A stretch of DNA of 64,000 bases from Minisyncoccota bacterium (GTDB lineage: Bacteria; Patescibacteriota; Minisyncoccia; Phycocordibacterales; UBA9973): contig JAIPHX010000002.1 of assembly GCA_021734995.1 (NCBI GenBank), forward strand, positions 80,189 to 144,188, in the 5' to 3' direction. The position numbers and the translations under genes are program-made. A model generated the notes under the pieces. It was not told the DNA's origin. It searched no databases and saw only the letters and a program-made list of their open reading frames with translations. Numbering within the stretch: the first letter of the stretch is position 1; the number at the start of each line of letters is the position of its first letter. Below are positions 18,388 through 25,374 of this stretch, in pieces.

Positions 18388-19076
18388 ATTTTATTTTTAA
18401 TTTTAATTTTAACAAAAATCATTTCATGAATTTTTTCTGGTGGCAAAATCTCGTTTTTGTCTGCACAATCTATCCTAATCCAATTTTTTTCAAATTTAGA
18501 AAGCCATATAGCACTAGCTCTAGAATTTTTTAGAAAAACTGCATCTGCTTCATGTAGATCTTTTTTGTTACCAAGATAATTTCTTTTACTTTTTTCATTT
18601 CTTTTTTGGATAAGACGTAAAGATGTCTCTACGGGGATACTTAGATAAAAAACCATATCAGGCTTTGGAATTTTAAATACTTTATACTCCATCTCTGCTA
18701 GCCACTTCATAAACTCTGCTCTTTTTTTAGGATTTTTTATCTTTCCTCCTTGGTGAATTTGATTGGCGCTCACGTATCTATTTGCCAATACAATATATCC
18801 TTCTTTCAACCATTTTTCTAACTTTTCCTTAGACTCAAAACGGTCCGCGGCATATAGCACCGAAGCAATTTTAGGATGCACTTTTATAAAATTATAGTAT
18901 TGCTCAGAAAGACAATGCCCAATGAAGGAACCAAAAAAGTTTGAATAGTACTCTGGAAAATCAACGATTTTTACTTTGTGTCCCTCTTTTTTTAAACGTT
19001 TAAATAAAATGTTTACTTGAGTAGATTTGCCACTACCATCTGTCCCATCAAAAACAATCAATTTACCTTTTTTCAT
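18384..19076 (-). CDS. tmk: Thymidylate kinase
   Basis: FDGTDGSGKSTQ P-loop, LYAADR, NRY, PD motifs. Confidence 0.92.
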   Translation of the reverse strand: MKKGKLIVFDGTDGSGKSTQVNILFKRLKKEGHKVKIVDFPEYYSNFFGSFIGHCLSEQYYNFIKVHPKIASVLYAADRFESKEKLEKWLKEGYIVLANRYVSANQIHQGGKIKNPKKRAEFMKWLAEMEYKVFKIPKPDMVFYLSIPVETSLRLIQKRNEKSKRNYLGNKKDLHEADAVFLKNSRASAIWLSKFEKNWIRIDCADKNEILPPEKIHEMIFVKIKIKNKI

Positions 19077-19122
19077 TCTTTTAATATATCACAATTCCCC
19101 AAGTTCTTTAAGAGCCTCTTTA

Positions 19123-19131
19123 TGCTATACT
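19123..19131 (+). promoter_or_regulatory. Extended -10 promoter of cassette ORF 1 (also at 19841-19849 for ORF 2)
   Basis: TGCTATACT conserved in both copies about 60 nt upstream of ATG. Confidence 0.6.
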
Positions 19132-19191
19132 ATCCAAAAAGTCGGCAGAGTTTTTGAAAAACCTTTATTATTTAAGGTTTTTTATTTTTAA

Positions 19192-19797
19192 ATGAAGAAA
19201 AAGAAAGATACTCTGCCAAAACATATCTGGGATATTTTTTATAGATTTAAAAAAATGAAGAAAGGTGAGCTGGTTAAGAACCCAACAAAAAAGTTGCTAA
19301 CAAATCTTGTGGTTTCAGAACAAATTTGGGGCTTAAAATTCAATAAAATATATTTTACCAATAAATCTTTAAAACATTTATCAGAAAAGAAAGATTTGGG
19401 AGAAAAATTATTAAAAAACATTCACATCATCTTTAAATCTCCACATGAGACAAGAGAAGCAAAGAATATAGATAGGTTTTTTCTTATCGGAGACATAAGG
19501 GTCTCTTCAAAAAAAGTTCAGACAGTTGTCACTTTAGAAAAGTCTAAAAACGAAAGTGGCATAATAATTACAATATTCCCTACAAACAAAAAATACCTTG
19601 AGAAATTTGAGTTGGTTTGGAGGACGGCAAAGCTCACTTCTAAAAAAGAAATGTCAGTCCCTCCATACGCATATCAACAAAATGTTGACGCTGGCGGTCG
19701 AACCGATGAATTTTCCGCTCATAAACCAACTCAAAGCTCTCAAAGTACTAAATCCAGTATATCAAAACCAAAACAAAAAGGTCAAGCAACTCTTTAG
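19192..19797 (+). CDS. Putative BECR/PBECR-like ribonuclease, copy 1
   Basis: IYFTNKSLKHLSEK...IFKSPHE...RFFLI...VVTLE...IIITIFPT..KYL pattern; paralog of 19910. Confidence 0.6.
   Translation: MKKKKDTLPKHIWDIFYRFKKMKKGELVKNPTKKLLTNLVVSEQIWGLKFNKIYFTNKSLKHLSEKKDLGEKLLKNIHIIFKSPHETREAKNIDRFFLIGDIRVSSKKVQTVVTLEKSKNESGIIITIFPTNKKYLEKFELVWRTAKLTSKKEMSVPPYAYQQNVDAGGRTDEFSAHKPTQSSQSTKSSISKPKQKGQATL
19584..19750 (-). ncRNA. Predicted structured antisense sRNA, copy 1
   Basis: Promoter 19785-19756, closing stem 19598-19618/19723-19743, inner hairpins, U-tract; covariation with copy 2. Confidence 0.65.
19756..19785 (-). promoter_or_regulatory. Sigma70 promoter TTGACC-N18-(TGa)TATACT for antisense RNA 1
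   Basis: Boxes identical in both cassettes while the spacer varies. Confidence 0.7.
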
Positions 19798-19909
19798 AAT
19801 CTATCTTGCAATTCCCCCCAGTTCTTTAAGAGCATCTTTGTGCTATACTATCCAAAAAGTCGGCAGAGTTTTTGAAAAACCTTTATTATTTAAGGTTTTT
19901 TATTTTTAA

Positions 19910-20494
19910 ATGAAGAAAAAGAAAGATGCTCTGCCAAAACATATCTGGGATGTTTTTTATAGATTTAAAAAAATGAAGAAAGGTGAATTGATTGAAAATG
20001 GCTCCAAAAAAATAGGGACTAAAATTTACATTTATAGACATATCAAAAATACCATGTCTACCCCAAAAAAAGTATATTTTTCTCATTTAACAATAAAACA
20101 TATGGCAGAAAAAAATATATTAGGTGAAAAATTATTAAAAATAACTCCAAAGATTTTATTAAAACCAGATGAAATTAGACATGGGATCAAAAAAGATAGA
20201 CTAATTTTTATCAAAAACACAAAGACGACTTCTCACGCAAAAAATACAGCAGTGGTCATTGAATCCAAAACAAAAAATACCTGTATTGTTGTCACAATAT
20301 TCCCCACAAACAAAAAATACCTTGAGAAATTTGAGTTACTGTGGAGGACGCCGGCACCAAATGGTGTTCCCTCCATGCGGCAACACTTCAAAGAAGTGGC
20401 TCGCGGCAAGCGATTTCCCGCTCATACAGCAACTCAAAGCTCTCAAAGTACTAAATCCAGTATATCAAAATTAAAACAAAAAGGTCAAGAATAG
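19910..20494 (+). CDS. Putative BECR/PBECR-like ribonuclease, copy 2
   Basis: VYFSHLTIKHMAEK...ILLKPDEIR...RLIFIK...AVVIE...IVVTIFPT..KYL. Confidence 0.6.
   Translation: MKKKKDALPKHIWDVFYRFKKMKKGELIENGSKKIGTKIYIYRHIKNTMSTPKKVYFSHLTIKHMAEKNILGEKLLKITPKILLKPDEIRHGIKKDRLIFIKNTKTTSHAKNTAVVIESKTKNTCIVVTIFPTNKKYLEKFELLWRTPAPNGVPSMRQHFKEVARGKRFPAHTATQSSQSTKSSISKLKQKGQE
20308..20453 (-). ncRNA. Predicted structured antisense sRNA, copy 2
   Basis: Promoter 20488-20459, closing stem 20322-20342/20426-20446, inner hairpins, U-tract. Confidence 0.65.
20459..20488 (-). promoter_or_regulatory. Sigma70 promoter TTGACC-N18-(TGa)TATACT for antisense RNA 2
   Basis: Same boxes and spacing as copy 1. Confidence 0.7.
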
Positions 20495-20510
20495 CTTGCG
20501 AAATTATTTT

Positions 20511-20954
20511 CTACCCTAATTCCCCAAGTTCCTTAAGGGCTTCTTTGGCATAAAAACAAATATTTGGTTCTATATCCATCTCATCCAATTCTTTTATTCC
20601 CACCCAGCGTATTTGATCTGTATCTCTTTCTAAGACCAACTTGTCATTGTTTGTTTTCGCAAAATACACACTGACAACTTTTGTATTTTCAAGATTATTG
20701 ATCTGTGCCAAAAATCTTGGAGCAAGTAAATGTTCATAATGATCTTCATCTGAAATATTTGAATGGTGGCCAAACAACTCAACTTCAAGCCCCACTTCTT
20801 CCATTACCTCTCTTTTTGCTGCCTCTATTGGGTTTTCGTGTTGTTCAATATGCCCACCAACAGAAATCCATTTCCCTAATTTTTCATGCAATCTCAAAAG
20901 TACTTTATTTTGAAAGACAATAAAAACTTCTACGGTAAAATCTACTTTTTTCAT
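20511..20954 (-). CDS. NUDIX hydrolase
   Basis: GGHIEQHENPIEAAKREVMEEVGL Nudix box. Confidence 0.93.
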   Translation of the reverse strand: MKKVDFTVEVFIVFQNKVLLRLHEKLGKWISVGGHIEQHENPIEAAKREVMEEVGLEVELFGHHSNISDEDHYEHLLAPRFLAQINNLENTKVVSVYFAKTNNDKLVLERDTDQIRWVGIKELDEMDIEPNICFYAKEALKELGELG

Positions 20955-22370: not shown

Positions 22371-23231
22371 TTAAAAACCAAACTTCACCACCACACTCCC
22401 CAAAACATCTGTCCTCAAAACCTGTACTCCAAGAGAATTCAAAATATCCAAAACTTCTCTATGAGGATGCCCATAAGAATTATTTTTACCAGCAGATACT
22501 AAGGCAAAGCGTGGAGAAACTTTTTGCACAAAAGGAAAAGAGCTAGAGGTCTTGGACCCATGATGCCCTGCTTTTAAATAGACACTTTTCAAAAATTGCT
22601 CAGCAGTGTTTTCCAATAAAATATTTTCTGTTTCAATCCCCGCATCTCCTGTAAGCAAAAAAGAAAGGTTGCCAAAAGAAAGACGCGTCACCACAGAAGC
22701 AGAGTTGGTCTCCCAGTCATATACATCTCTATCAGGAAAAAGAATATCTAAATATGTATCCCCTCCTAAATCAATCCGTGTTCCCTTTCGCGCTAAAATA
22801 TTTAAAATATTCTTTTCTGCAATTTTCTGAGAAATATTTTTGTAGACGATAGAATCCGTCGCTACTCCTGATTGAAAAATCATACCAACTTCATAAAAAT
22901 CCAAAAGCTCCTTGAGTCCACCAATATGATCGGTATCTGGATGTGTCATTATTACCACATCTATATATCTATCAAAAGATGGCACCACTTCTGCCAATGC
23001 TCCAAGCAATTTTCTAGGAGGGCCTCCATCAATCAATACTTGTGTCCCTGTGGGAGATTGAATAAATAAAGCATCACCTTGTCCAACATCAAGCATTGCA
23101 AACACAAACTTCCCATCAAGGCTTCTAGTTTCAAAGAAAAGCAATACAAAGAACATTACAGATAGTACAAAAAACATCGCCATAGCAGAAGATTTAGGAT
23201 TTTTGTATATGTTTTTAAAGAAAAAATACAT
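22371..23231 (-). CDS. ComEC/Rec2 C-terminal metallo-beta-lactamase domain protein
   Basis: LDVGQGDA, THPDTDH, LLTGDA, GHHGSKTSS, YGHPH. Confidence 0.92.
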   Translation of the reverse strand: MYFFFKNIYKNPKSSAMAMFFVLSVMFFVLLFFETRSLDGKFVFAMLDVGQGDALFIQSPTGTQVLIDGGPPRKLLGALAEVVPSFDRYIDVVIMTHPDTDHIGGLKELLDFYEVGMIFQSGVATDSIVYKNISQKIAEKNILNILARKGTRIDLGGDTYLDILFPDRDVYDWETNSASVVTRLSFGNLSFLLTGDAGIETENILLENTAEQFLKSVYLKAGHHGSKTSSSFPFVQKVSPRFALVSAGKNNSYGHPHREVLDILNSLGVQVLRTDVLGSVVVKFGF

Positions 23232-23348
23232 TTTAAAAAATATTAAAAAGGCGTGCTTTCAGGCATGCTATAATAAAGACAGGGAAGATATGTGTCTTTC
23301 CCCCTATCTATTATTAAGTTAACATTTACACATAAAGAAAAAATAAAT

Positions 23349-23939
23349 ATGAAAAAATTTGAAGAAATACAATTTAATATAGGTGAGCTAAAAGGTATCT
23401 CCGCTAAAAACATAGAGGAACATCTCAAGCTATATGCTGGCTATGTAAAACATTCCAATTTAATTTTGGAAAAAATATCAGAATATTCTAATGATATGGA
23501 AGGTAACGCCTACACCATAGGAGAATTGCAAAGAAGATTTGGTTTTGAATACAATGGTATGCGCAATCACGAATACTATTTCAAATCTCTAGAGGGCGGG
23601 GCAAAAACATTACCAGAAGATAGTGTTTTAAAAAAAGAAATCATAAATCAATTTGGCTCTTTTGATCAATGGCTCAGAAATTTTCAAGCAATGGCAATGA
23701 CAAGAGGTGTGGGGTGGGCGGTACTTGCTTTTGATACTCACACAAAACAACTCATACACATCTGGATAGACGAGCAACATTTGGGACAATTAAACGGAGC
23801 TCAGTGGATCCTAGGAATAGATATGTGGGAGCATGCTTTTGTATATGACTACCCTACTTCTCAAAAGAGAAAATACATAGAAGCATTTTTTGAAAACTTA
23901 AACTGGGAAGTGATAGAAGAAAATTTTAAAAAGATTTAG
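23349..23939 (+). CDS. sod: Fe/Mn superoxide dismutase family protein
   Basis: NHEYYF, GWAVL, DMWEHAFVYDY; start moved to ATG 23349. Confidence 0.9.
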   Translation: MKKFEEIQFNIGELKGISAKNIEEHLKLYAGYVKHSNLILEKISEYSNDMEGNAYTIGELQRRFGFEYNGMRNHEYYFKSLEGGAKTLPEDSVLKKEIINQFGSFDQWLRNFQAMAMTRGVGWAVLAFDTHTKQLIHIWIDEQHLGQLNGAQWILGIDMWEHAFVYDYPTSQKRKYIEAFFENLNWEVIEENFKKI

Positions 23940-25374
23940 AATATATCTTCCAACTAAAAAATACATAAATCATTAATACCAATATCAGTGGTAAGCTTTT
24001 TATCTGTAGAGAAGCGAGTGGTATTCTTGCCAATAGATCTATCACGAAAAGCTTCCAGTGAAGCAGAAAATATGTAAACTCCAAAAAAGGGAAAGCAATT
24101 ATATGTGAAAATAAATTTAAAAAACCTCCCAAAAATCCAAAAATCATAGTAATCGGAATCGTAGGTAATACCAATATATTAGCAGGCAAAGACACCAAAG
24201 AAAGATTCCCCATTTTGTAAACAACAAAAGGTATTACAAAAACATAAGCAGAAAAAGTAGTAGCAATCATCTCTCTCCACCATTTATTTTCAATCCAAAA
24301 AAAATATTTCTGCACCAAAGGGGTGAAGAAAATTACAGCAATGGTAGCCAAAAAAGAAAGCTGAAAAGACACATCATACACTAAGACAAATGGATTTAGA
24401 ATCACCATTAATAAAGCTACGAATACAATCCCTCTCCATACATCATATTCTCGCCCTGTGGCTTTTGCTACTATTGCTAGACTTGCCATAATCCCTGCCC
24501 TGACAGCAGTCGCCTGCCCTCCCGACATAAGGACAAATAAAAAAATACCAATTACCCCTGTAAAAAATGCCCAGTAAATCGGTAGCCAAGAAAAAAGTTT
24601 CATTATCCATTCAGCAATCATCGTCACATTGTATCCAGAGAGAGCTACTATATGTATCGTACCTGTATCCACAAACTGCTGTCTAAGCTCGGTACTAAAT
24701 CCAGACCGCTCCCCCAAAATCAACCCACCAAGTAAGGTAGATTCTGGAGAAGGGATAACAGCATTCAATTTTTCTAAAAAAATACTTTTTGTTTTATACA
24801 AAAATCTTTTGAGTGGATTTCCCTCCCCTTTATTTACCACCTTTATGTTTGGATAATTCATCAAAAAAAATATTTTATCTTTCTTCAGATATGAAATATA
24901 ATCAAAACTTTTCCCTAAGGGAGTGATAAAATTTTCAGGCAAAATTAAAACACCATTCAATATAACCCTATCTCCATAATCAAAGTATTTTTCAAGCCCT
25001 GTAGTGACGAGAACATTTTGCTTCTCTAGCTTCACTGTGATTTTTTGATTTGTATCTTTCACTTCTGGCTCATTTATCACTATTCCTTCCAAAGATATTT
25101 TTTGTCCTATCTTTTGATAAAAATCAAGAGGAGGATATATATCTGCTATATTGTATCTACTGATACCCAGACCAATAGCCAATAAAAATACACTTGCACA
25201 AATAATTATATTTTTAATTTCCCAAAACACTTTTATTTGCCACAAGAGAAAAATCAAAAACATTGCAACTCCAAAAAGCCAACCAGCAAAATACCAATCT
25301 AAAAAAATAAAGGAACGCATCAGCGTTCCTAGGAGGAATCCAAAACAAATTGTATAAAATATTTTATCCCGCAT
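23926..25374 (-). CDS. comEC: ComEC/Rec2 competence channel (membrane part)
   Basis: GTIHIVALSGYNV, VRAGIM, SFQLSFLAT; many TM helices. Confidence 0.93.
   Translation of the reverse strand: MRDKIFYTICFGFLLGTLMRSFIFLDWYFAGWLFGVAMFLIFLLWQIKVFWEIKNIIICASVFLLAIGLGISRYNIADIYPPLDFYQKIGQKISLEGIVINEPEVKDTNQKITVKLEKQNVLVTTGLEKYFDYGDRVILNGVLILPENFITPLGKSFDYISYLKKDKIFFLMNYPNIKVVNKGEGNPLKRFLYKTKSIFLEKLNAVIPSPESTLLGGLILGERSGFSTELRQQFVDTGTIHIVALSGYNVTMIAEWIMKLFSWLPIYWAFFTGVIGIFLFVLMSGGQATAVRAGIMASLAIVAKATGREYDVWRGIVFVALLMVILNPFVLVYDVSFQLSFLATIAVIFFTPLVQKYFFWIENKWWREMIATTFSAYVFVIPFVVYKMGNLSLVSLPANILVLPTIPITMIFGFLGGFLNLFSHIIAFPFLEFTYFLLHWKLFVIDLLARIPLASLQIKSLPLILVLMIYVFFSWKIYSKSF

Follow-up and report, generated by a model that had tools for sequence, protein, structure and literature searches.

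A conserved structured RNA antisense to the 3' ends of predicted phage-derived BECR-fold nuclease genes, and its probable role as an antitoxin

In type III toxin-antitoxin systems the antitoxin RNAs are pseudoknotted. In these systems (ToxIN, AbiQ, CptIN and TenpIN) an RNase toxin is held by a protein-binding RNA, as described in the available part of PMC8167048, and the antitoxin consists of tandem repeats of ~36 nt that lie upstream on the toxin's own transcript and are cut by the toxin. Type I systems such as txpA/RatA and bsrG/SR4 have a convergent layout, with toxin and RNA genes overlapping at their 3' ends (the same part of PMC8167048), and their toxin is a small membrane peptide. Protein-binding RNA antitoxins are known from few families, none of which has a BECR-fold toxin in the literature searched.

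The protein side of the present locus belongs with the PBECR domains of polyvalent and MuF proteins (PF18810, PF18819, PF18825), treated by Iyer et al. (2017, PMC5512222), whose main text, so far as it was available, names no RNA partner of PBECR and contains neither "antisense" nor "noncoding". The available portion of a 2026 survey of BECR proteins (bioRxiv 10.64898/2026.08.28.747851) similarly lacks the words "non-coding" and "antisense". MuF polymorphic toxins carry a C-terminal nuclease on a phage head protein, so that the producer needs immunity, and of the 191 toxin genes 89.4% are accompanied by a small downstream immunity protein (Jamet et al. 2017, PMC5576092, in the part available). 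How a producer survives the nuclease domains of polyvalent and MuF proteins that have no immunity gene is a question to which the RNA family considered here offers a candidate answer. The DUF3800-I to XI, drum and skipping-rope motifs are reported structured RNAs, unexplained, each family of which accompanies a single protein domain, on one strand or the other (available text of PMC5737381). No description of an RNA tied to PBECR domains was found in the literature searched, which excludes most subscription papers.

The DNA considered in this study, which I will call the window, is a stretch of 64,000 nucleotides from a Minisyncoccota bacterium (contig JAIPHX010000002.1). The source genome measures 789 kb and is 97% complete, and ARAGORN finds 35 tRNA genes and no tmRNA in its 10 contigs. 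The interval between tmk and a NUDIX gene holds two tandem ORFs on the plus strand, each of which, with its leader and the RNA over its 3' end, I will refer to as a cassette. The sense-strand features are as follows (basis in parentheses).

19123..19217, plus strand: TGcTATACT (19123-19131), the sense extended -10 box of cassette 1, followed by its folded leader (seen in sequence; fold)
19192..19797, plus strand: cassette 1 gene, PBECR2-type predicted ribonuclease, 201 aa (ORF list; Pfam)
19841..19935, plus strand: sense extended -10 box of cassette 2 with its folded leader, which share 95% identity with those of cassette 1 (sequence comparison; fold)
19910..20494, plus strand: cassette 2 gene, PBECR2-type predicted ribonuclease, 194 aa (PF18810 above cut-off)

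The cassette 1 leader folds at -25.1 kcal/mol (a value without a shuffle control) into a hairpin with a U-run, within an 8-bp helix that closes over the start codon.

The two proteins are 50-52% identical. The protein of cassette 2 matches the PBECR2 profile PF18810 above the curated cut-off of 27.1 bits (E=2.8e-8, 34.4 bits); that of cassette 1 matches it below the same cut-off (E=0.0028, 18.3 bits) and keeps the His and Thr columns of the alignment. Its domain occupies about residues 1-145, and its final ~55 codons traverse the antisense RNA and the promoter of that RNA. Among 40 aligned homologues His64 is invariant and Thr129 is present in at least 90% (cassette 2 numbering). In an AlphaFold model of the cassette 2 protein (pLDDT 83), H64 lies in a helix (59-67) and T129 in a strand (124-133), and for PBECR domains and colicin D the available part of PMC5512222 describes an active site with a His-plus-Thr layout. 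The best structural matches of the model have middling Z values: CdiA-CT NC101 at 6.4, the highest (rmsd 3.3 over 86 residues), then BrnT (5.6), RelE (5.2) and colicin D (4.7). Foldseek with the nuclease model gave no match in the PDB at E<=0.001, and the ESM Atlas clusters returned for the window nuclease are PBECR2, PBECR3 and MuF_C. A Pfam search showed no match to the ToxN family in the window nucleases, and PADLOC returned nothing meaningful. On profile and model, then, the two are predicted BECR-fold RNases.

On the opposite strand, over the 3' end of each nuclease gene, lies a structured element of ~145-165 nt, whose parts are these.

19584..19749, minus strand: structured RNA copy 1, predicted 5' end at ~19749 (fold; covariance model, 132 bits)
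19749-19723 with 19618-19592, minus strand: copy 1 closing stem P1 (fold)
19694..19718, minus strand: copy 1 helix P2 (19718-19715 with 19697-19694), whose loop carries the 5' strand of the pseudoknot, 19705-19702 (family parse)
19667..19693, minus strand: copy 1 arm P3, a variable hairpin (fold; alignment)
19619..19664, minus strand: copy 1 helix P4 (19664-19660 with 19623-19619), the optional hairpin inside it, and the pseudoknot's 3' strand, 19628-19625 (family parse)
19593-19584, minus strand: copy 1 U-run (sequence)
19756..19785, minus strand: copy 1 antisense sigma-70 promoter, TTGACC-18-TATACT (promoter scan; family conservation)
20308..20452, minus strand: structured RNA copy 2 (fold; covariance model; family parse)
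20452-20426 with 20342-20316, minus strand: copy 2 closing stem P1 (fold)
20421-20418 with 20406-20403 and 20374-20370 with 20347-20343, minus strand: copy 2 helices P2 and P4, respectively (family parse)
20412-20409 with 20352-20349, minus strand: copy 2 pseudoknot, compensated relative to copy 1 (family parse)
20459..20488, minus strand: copy 2 antisense sigma-70 promoter (promoter scan)

A first-pass annotation of the window had proposed a structured RNA on the minus strand from these two copies, and its particulars hold when set against the sequence and the folds. The arms it paired in copy 1 (19606-19618 and 19723-19735) are exact reverse complements, and those of copy 2 (20330-20342 and 20426-20438) differ from them by two double changes and by one change that gives A-C on the plus strand and G-U on the minus strand. 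The extension it described continues the stem to 19749/19592 in copy 1 and 20452/20316 in copy 2, and the inner helices it named (GGAGG/CCTCC, GCGG/CCGC and two variable hairpins) all appear in the folds. The TTGACC-18-TATACT sites it placed ahead of the stem are present at 19785-19756 and 20488-20459, as is the U-run behind it. The minus-strand fold of copy 1 reaches -62.0 kcal/mol (z -5.89) and that of copy 2 -63.9 kcal/mol (z -5.64), with 0 of 200 shuffles as good in either case; the 132 bits of copy 1 are the score of a member of the model's own training set. The two promoters are the best (10/12 each) of seven promoter-like sites in 19000-20700, a number not above chance (5.8 +/- 2.8 expected). 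The U-run is the antisense of conserved Lys codons, the terminator scan does not call it a terminator behind the RNA stem, and it may serve as one. The pseudoknot, the overlapped nuclease genes and the three copies of the NUDIX 3' end considered below had gone unmentioned in that annotation.

Searching Patescibacteria and phage DNA with a covariance model, here built from 22 copies, was the course the annotation had recommended, and relatives from Patescibacteria genomes, from metagenomes and from phages keep the fold. From its 5' end on the antisense strand, it consists of P1 (up to ~27 bp), a 4-nt linker, a 4-bp P2, the unpaired sequence RAA, the variable P3 and a 5-bp P4 that is stacked directly on P1 and may contain an inner hairpin, the whole making a four-way junction. 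In a MAFFT alignment of the 22 copies, not fitted to structure, 93% of cells pair, a figure that falls to 40-49% when partners are slid. Covariation is present in this larger alignment: 30 of 51 pairs change on both sides, a count reached by 0 of 500 shuffles (which ignore kinship) and compared with 12-18 for slid partners. RNAalifold recovers P1, P2, P3 and P4 unprompted. Of 45 model matches, 41 were parsed (L078, L089, L210 and L279 were unparsed and dropped). In these P2 varies between G-C (22) and A-U (19), P4 likewise between G-C (33) and A-U (8), and the RAA after P2 is invariant (41/41). A pseudoknot joins the loops of P2 and P4. Its inner three pairs hold in 41 of 41 copies and all four pairs in 35 of 41, where shuffling the partners between sequences gives a mean of 17.4 and a maximum of 27. 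The variants, several of them compensated, include CGGC/GCCG, CGGG/CCCG, CAGC/GCUG, CGCU/GGCG (common to window copy 2 and a Mu-like phage) and, read from sequence, CGAC/GUCG (L279) and CGCC/GGCG (phage B3).

The unpaired motifs and the pseudoknot are kept across phages and two nuclease clades. These two clades, which the RNA subtype tracks, are well supported within a tree that is otherwise poorly resolved (6 of 30 branches starred), and one clade has an extra conserved purine-rich internal loop in P3. Variation in the RNA sits in hairpin extensions; the P3 loop is not conserved across the family, and no variable, guide-like single-stranded segment is seen. A divergent member (L101:1920-2088) has P4 as GGGUG/CACCC; its closing stem is short, and a long, perfect terminator-like hairpin comes immediately after it.

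The strand can be fixed as the antisense one, because G-U cells outnumber A-C cells on it by 100 to 18 and because a sigma-70-like site (>=9/12) lies upstream of the RNA in 35 of the 43 copies with enough flank, as against 3 of 43 at the other end. The antisense strand also folds better in 41 of 45 copies. As to coding, the conserved RNA bases fall in one reading frame in 25 copies, in another in eight, outside the ORF in seven and in a truncated locus in one (n=41). Two frames and a non-coding placement mean that protein coding does not explain the conserved bases, and a cause at the protein level is thereby ruled out. Covariation, G-U polarity, the unpaired motifs, the pseudoknot and the frames together support the broader claim of the first-pass annotation, that the element is a structured minus-strand RNA whose fold matters beyond antisense pairing.

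The conserved RNA family is real, and it is uncatalogued. The comparison with Rfam that the annotation had called for matches the element to no described family: Rfam 15 at gathering score finds four tRNAs only in the whole window, a search of 19000-20600 at E<=10 finds nothing on the element (weak RatA matches fall at other coordinates), and nine relative loci give 0 matches. A tRNA was considered and rejected, given that neither ARAGORN nor Rfam RF00005 calls one and that P3 ranges from 23 to 44 nt with no conserved anticodon arm. RNase P RNA was rejected as well: RF00010 has no match at the locus and the genome's RNase P RNA sits on another contig, on which finding a passing likeness to RNase P conserved regions was dropped as well.

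To what extent is the RNA tied to the nuclease? A HMMER search gave 68 proteins, including the window's two, of which 46 have their C-terminus within 30 residues of a conserved Trp, 17 extend further and five were unparsed; a word-index protein search found only the window's own two. Starting from the proteins, an antisense RNA was found at the 3' end of the gene in 2 of 2, 13 of 13 and 7 of 7 new loci in three sets of DNA, a tight association in which 10 of the first 15 loci belong to the model's training set and the final seven were fetched after the model sequences were fixed. In another set, of 15 loci with non-self homologues, six have the RNA (L087, L088, L089, L090, L091, L101; L088, itself unscored, is counted as identical to L087), seven hold distant putative toxins followed by a DUF2283 gene (six above the Pfam cut-off, one weak), and the remaining two are an LPD3-like gene and a weak, broken match. 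Neither the covariance model nor a hand-written descriptor for distant members finds the RNA beside the seven DUF2283-partnered homologues, and a comparison of the ORFs beside 39 RNA-bearing loci, made on length and first residues alone, shows no recurring small partner.

Starting instead from the RNA, the model matches one other genome among 150 of the phylum, at a locus already found by the protein search. A DNA-pattern scan of GTDB genomes gave 16 matches judged true: 11 adjoin a substantial match to the domain, three only its last ~20 codons, one is cut by the end of its contig and one is without the domain. Relatives with names are Patescibacteria (Paceibacterota, Taylorbacteria, Saccharibacteria). 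Matches in such scans are mostly chance (judged true: 3 of 68, 16 of 62, 0 of 36, and 5 of 80 examined out of 91). The remainder in the first three was screened by script and not by covariance model, and one of the 16, L140, is half an element only and was left out of later counts. Viral scans with the protein alignment and with P0003 confirmed nothing. The descriptor recovers 39 of 44 loci, and its chance rate for a 150-nt window is ~1e-4 to 6e-4. Plain hairpins can reach 24 bits with the covariance model (R1) when its filters are off, so that L087 (20 bits), L209 (18) and B3 (17) rest on position, strand and descriptor.

The distribution of the module is patchy, as it is absent from all five of five genomes of the same genus. 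Since 18 of 40 tested loci lie in one comEC-sod-MBL region of related genomes, the copies are not independent, and kinship limits what the counts can say. In many Paceibacteria-type contigs the module stands behind comEC, overlapping its stop or fused to it in frame as ComEC-PBECR2 (module behind comEC: L074-L077, L079, L080, L083, L084, L118, L123, L139, L143, L146, L155, L160). The window has its own comEC-sod-MBL region (22371-25374), 2-5 kb from the cassettes. The module may conceivably have some link to DNA uptake. L143 is labelled Gammaproteobacteria and has the comEC-sod context of the Patescibacteria loci, and is probably a mis-binned contig. The RNA and a promoter-like site are kept at L146, L155 and L161, though the nuclease gene is gone or cut to its last ~20 codons.

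Two LPD3-like orphan genes with weak Pfam matches, one in the source genome outside the window (L325:531-992, equivalent to G000:C6:52330-52791) and the other at L099:1459-1965, each have their own antisense promoter-like site and structured element downstream, and the former also has a leader hairpin like those of the window cassettes. These elements are possibly a second RNA family in the same role.

The RNA occurs in phages as well. It follows LPD13/PBECR2 domains fused to portal proteins (L005, L053, L279) and the MuF protein of a Mu-like phage (L276), and in L154 it lies, with its promoter, inside an ORF of >1000 aa. In Pseudomonas phage B3 a copy occupies the 123-base gap between the MuF and G genes; it scores 17.4 bits (E 0.0064 in 14 kb) and is a full match to the descriptor, the chance of which is ~3e-4 per 150 bases at its GC content. 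Its predicted transcript spans about AF232233 18953-19080, minus strand. Seven of seven viral contigs related to B3 show the RNA. An annotated hypothetical ORF of 32 codons (B3 ORF34, L312:2140-2238) shares the position of the RNA gene, though not its strand, and may be spurious. That the family is present in a cultured phage, besides uncultured Patescibacteria, makes it testable at once.

When seven Mu-like MuF tails are aligned, two have no His and leave no intergenic gap for an RNA. The five that bear the His include two with this RNA, two with other structured antisense elements (Pasteurella phage AFS-2018a and Curvibacter phage TJ1) and one with none (Ralstonia phage YO088_1, which has no gap); because of these three exceptions, the RNA family cannot be obligatory for every PBECR-like domain. 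In AFS-2018a (L303:3360-3445, minus strand, the gap between ORF23 and ORF24) a promoter-like site and a cloverleaf of ~80 nt, unrelated in sequence to the window family and without a match in Rfam, stand behind the MuF tail. The third arm of the cloverleaf resembles a tRNA T-arm. In TJ1 (L316:2075-2270, minus strand) a terminator-like hairpin comes after the structured element. MuF_C is matched by the MuF tails weakly or not at all, and that of L276 has no significant alignment with the window protein family; for this reason the kinship of the MuF tails rests on the available part of PMC5512222 and on the ESM Atlas clusters. Neither the window protein nor the L005 domain had a tblastn match among annotated phages.

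How the cassettes came to lie between tmk and the NUDIX gene is suggested by repeats of the end of the latter.

19089..19121, minus strand: distal repeat of the NUDIX 3' end, its stop in frame (KEALKELGEL*) (sequence repeat)
19801..19839, minus strand: middle repeat of the NUDIX 3' end, its stop in frame (KDALKELGGIAR*) (sequence repeat)
20511..20546, minus strand: 3' end of the NUDIX gene (20511-20954) as it now stands, where insertion apparently took place (ORF; Pfam; empty site in same-genus genomes)

Three copies of the final 11-13 NUDIX codons, each with an in-frame stop, thus bracket both cassettes. Among the five genomes of the same genus, NUDIX abuts tmk in three, and glyA does so in two. 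L207 shows the same arrangement, with a 33-base repeat of the end of a neighbouring gene. These scars fit successive site-specific insertions at the 3' ends of genes; no integrase for the insertion of the cassettes was identified.

What might the RNA do? Each cassette would be a two-part toxin-antitoxin module, in which the plus-strand gene would encode a PBECR2/BECR-fold ribonuclease with its origin in the virion and polyvalent proteins of phages, and the strong convergent promoter would yield a single RNA of ~150 nt, folding by way of its closing stem, four-way junction and kissing-loop pseudoknot of the P2 and P4 loops. The folded core would bind the nuclease and hold it inactive, in the usual place of a protein immunity gene. 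This is the best reading of the sequences, and I give it about even weight; that the RNA has an antitoxin role of some kind is a good deal more probable. The antitoxin slot is suggested by the distant homologues, which have a protein partner and no RNA, and by the RNA-bearing loci, which have no apparent recurring small partner gene. An intact-looking cytoplasmic RNase would, moreover, need a brake. The RNA may even serve as a substrate-shaped decoy: a 4-bp P2, a 5-bp P4 stacked on P1 and contact between the P2 and P4 loops resemble the geometry of a tRNA core, and the nearest solved folds of the nuclease include tRNases. Mimicry of tRNA is only a lead, because the arm that would bear the anticodon is not conserved. 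A wider generalization, to an unrecognised immunity strategy in which tRNA-shaped decoys, encoded antisense at the end of every such domain, disarm the PBECR nucleases of virion and polyvalent proteins within the cell that produces them, is tentative and on the whole doubtful. If it were true, toxin domain and RNA antidote would move as one 700-base unit, even inside long ORFs, and the toxin would be freed on entering a cell without the RNA.

The main rival, rather unlikely in my estimation, is that the RNA pairs with the toxin mRNA and silences it. The convergent 3' overlap is indeed the layout of txpA/RatA and bsrG/SR4 (available part of PMC8167048), the sense leader also looks repressive, and loss of the RNA together with a His-less nuclease would fit silencing too. 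Binding of the protein is to be favoured because pairing in cis, being automatic, needs neither a tertiary fold with its pseudoknot nor invariant unpaired bases; furthermore, P1 and P4 take up most of the part of the RNA that is complementary to coding sequence. A phage's target would be the late transcript of the portal or MuF gene, and silencing it would stop the phage from making and packaging a protein of which it needs large amounts, so the position of the RNA behind portal and MuF genes and inside an ORF of >1000 aa would argue for the blocking of a protein and not of a message. The RNA could, alternatively, be a working partner or effector, a cofactor or scaffold of PBECR or a phage's tRNA-shaped decoy against host anticodon nucleases. 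The highly constrained core common to phyla and phages speaks for this, as do the unrelated structured RNAs that hold the same place behind other PBECR-like and LPD3-like genes (compare the many DUF3800 motifs in the available text of PMC5737381). So does the persistence of the RNA in the three loci that have lost the gene, which would suit an antitoxin left behind, but a role of its own too. The RNA has, however, no variable guide-like segment, and its replacement by DUF2283 in the distant homologues points to an antitoxin slot, so that I consider a partner or effector quite unlikely.

Two further readings account for the fold in other ways. The cleavage assays proposed in the first-pass annotation hint at a ribozyme, for which there is no support here. 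A compact pseudoknotted core with invariant unpaired purines would suit a self-cleaving or otherwise catalytic RNA, but no Rfam ribozyme matches at gathering score or at E<=10, and a tight link to one protein domain on the opposite strand is unusual for ribozymes, according to the available text of PMC5737381; the reading is very improbable. The element might, finally, act not as RNA but as single-stranded DNA, an attC-like recombination site of a mobile gene cassette, as tandem cassettes, a strand-biased fold and insertion scars might suggest. Yet the duplicate that marks the crossover is the NUDIX 3' end, which lies outside the fold, a promoter is directed into the element in 35 of 43 copies, and the element is found inside long ORFs and phage head modules, which together leave this idea with scarcely any probability.

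Set beside the systems described at the outset, the module resembles toxin-antitoxin systems of type III in its proposed working, an RNase toxin held by a protein-binding RNA. It differs from them in having one multi-helix RNA with its own convergent promoter, at the 3' end of the gene, and a predicted toxin of the BECR fold: no short tandem array lies upstream of the window nucleases, a single RNA lying instead at the 3' end, and toxin and RNA share neither promoter nor strand. With type I systems it has the layout in common, since the RNA overlaps the last codons or the 3' flank of the nuclease gene in 41 of 41 parsed copies. Its predicted toxin, however, is an RNase domain of ~145 aa, often fused into virion proteins, and its RNA keeps a tertiary fold and is matched by no Rfam antitoxin family. 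Relative to the MuF polymorphic toxins, an antisense RNA gene takes the place of the immunity protein. The association of a structured RNA with one protein domain recalls the DUF3800, drum and skipping-rope motifs, from which the present family differs in its protein partner, and none of their Rfam models matched. The family also gives a sequence handle for finding such RNAs inside coding regions. By analogy, then, the module would be type III-like in its working, on the best reading, and type I-like in its layout, with a fold that type I does not need, and its RNA probably represents a new form of antitoxin, directed at BECR nucleases of phage origin.
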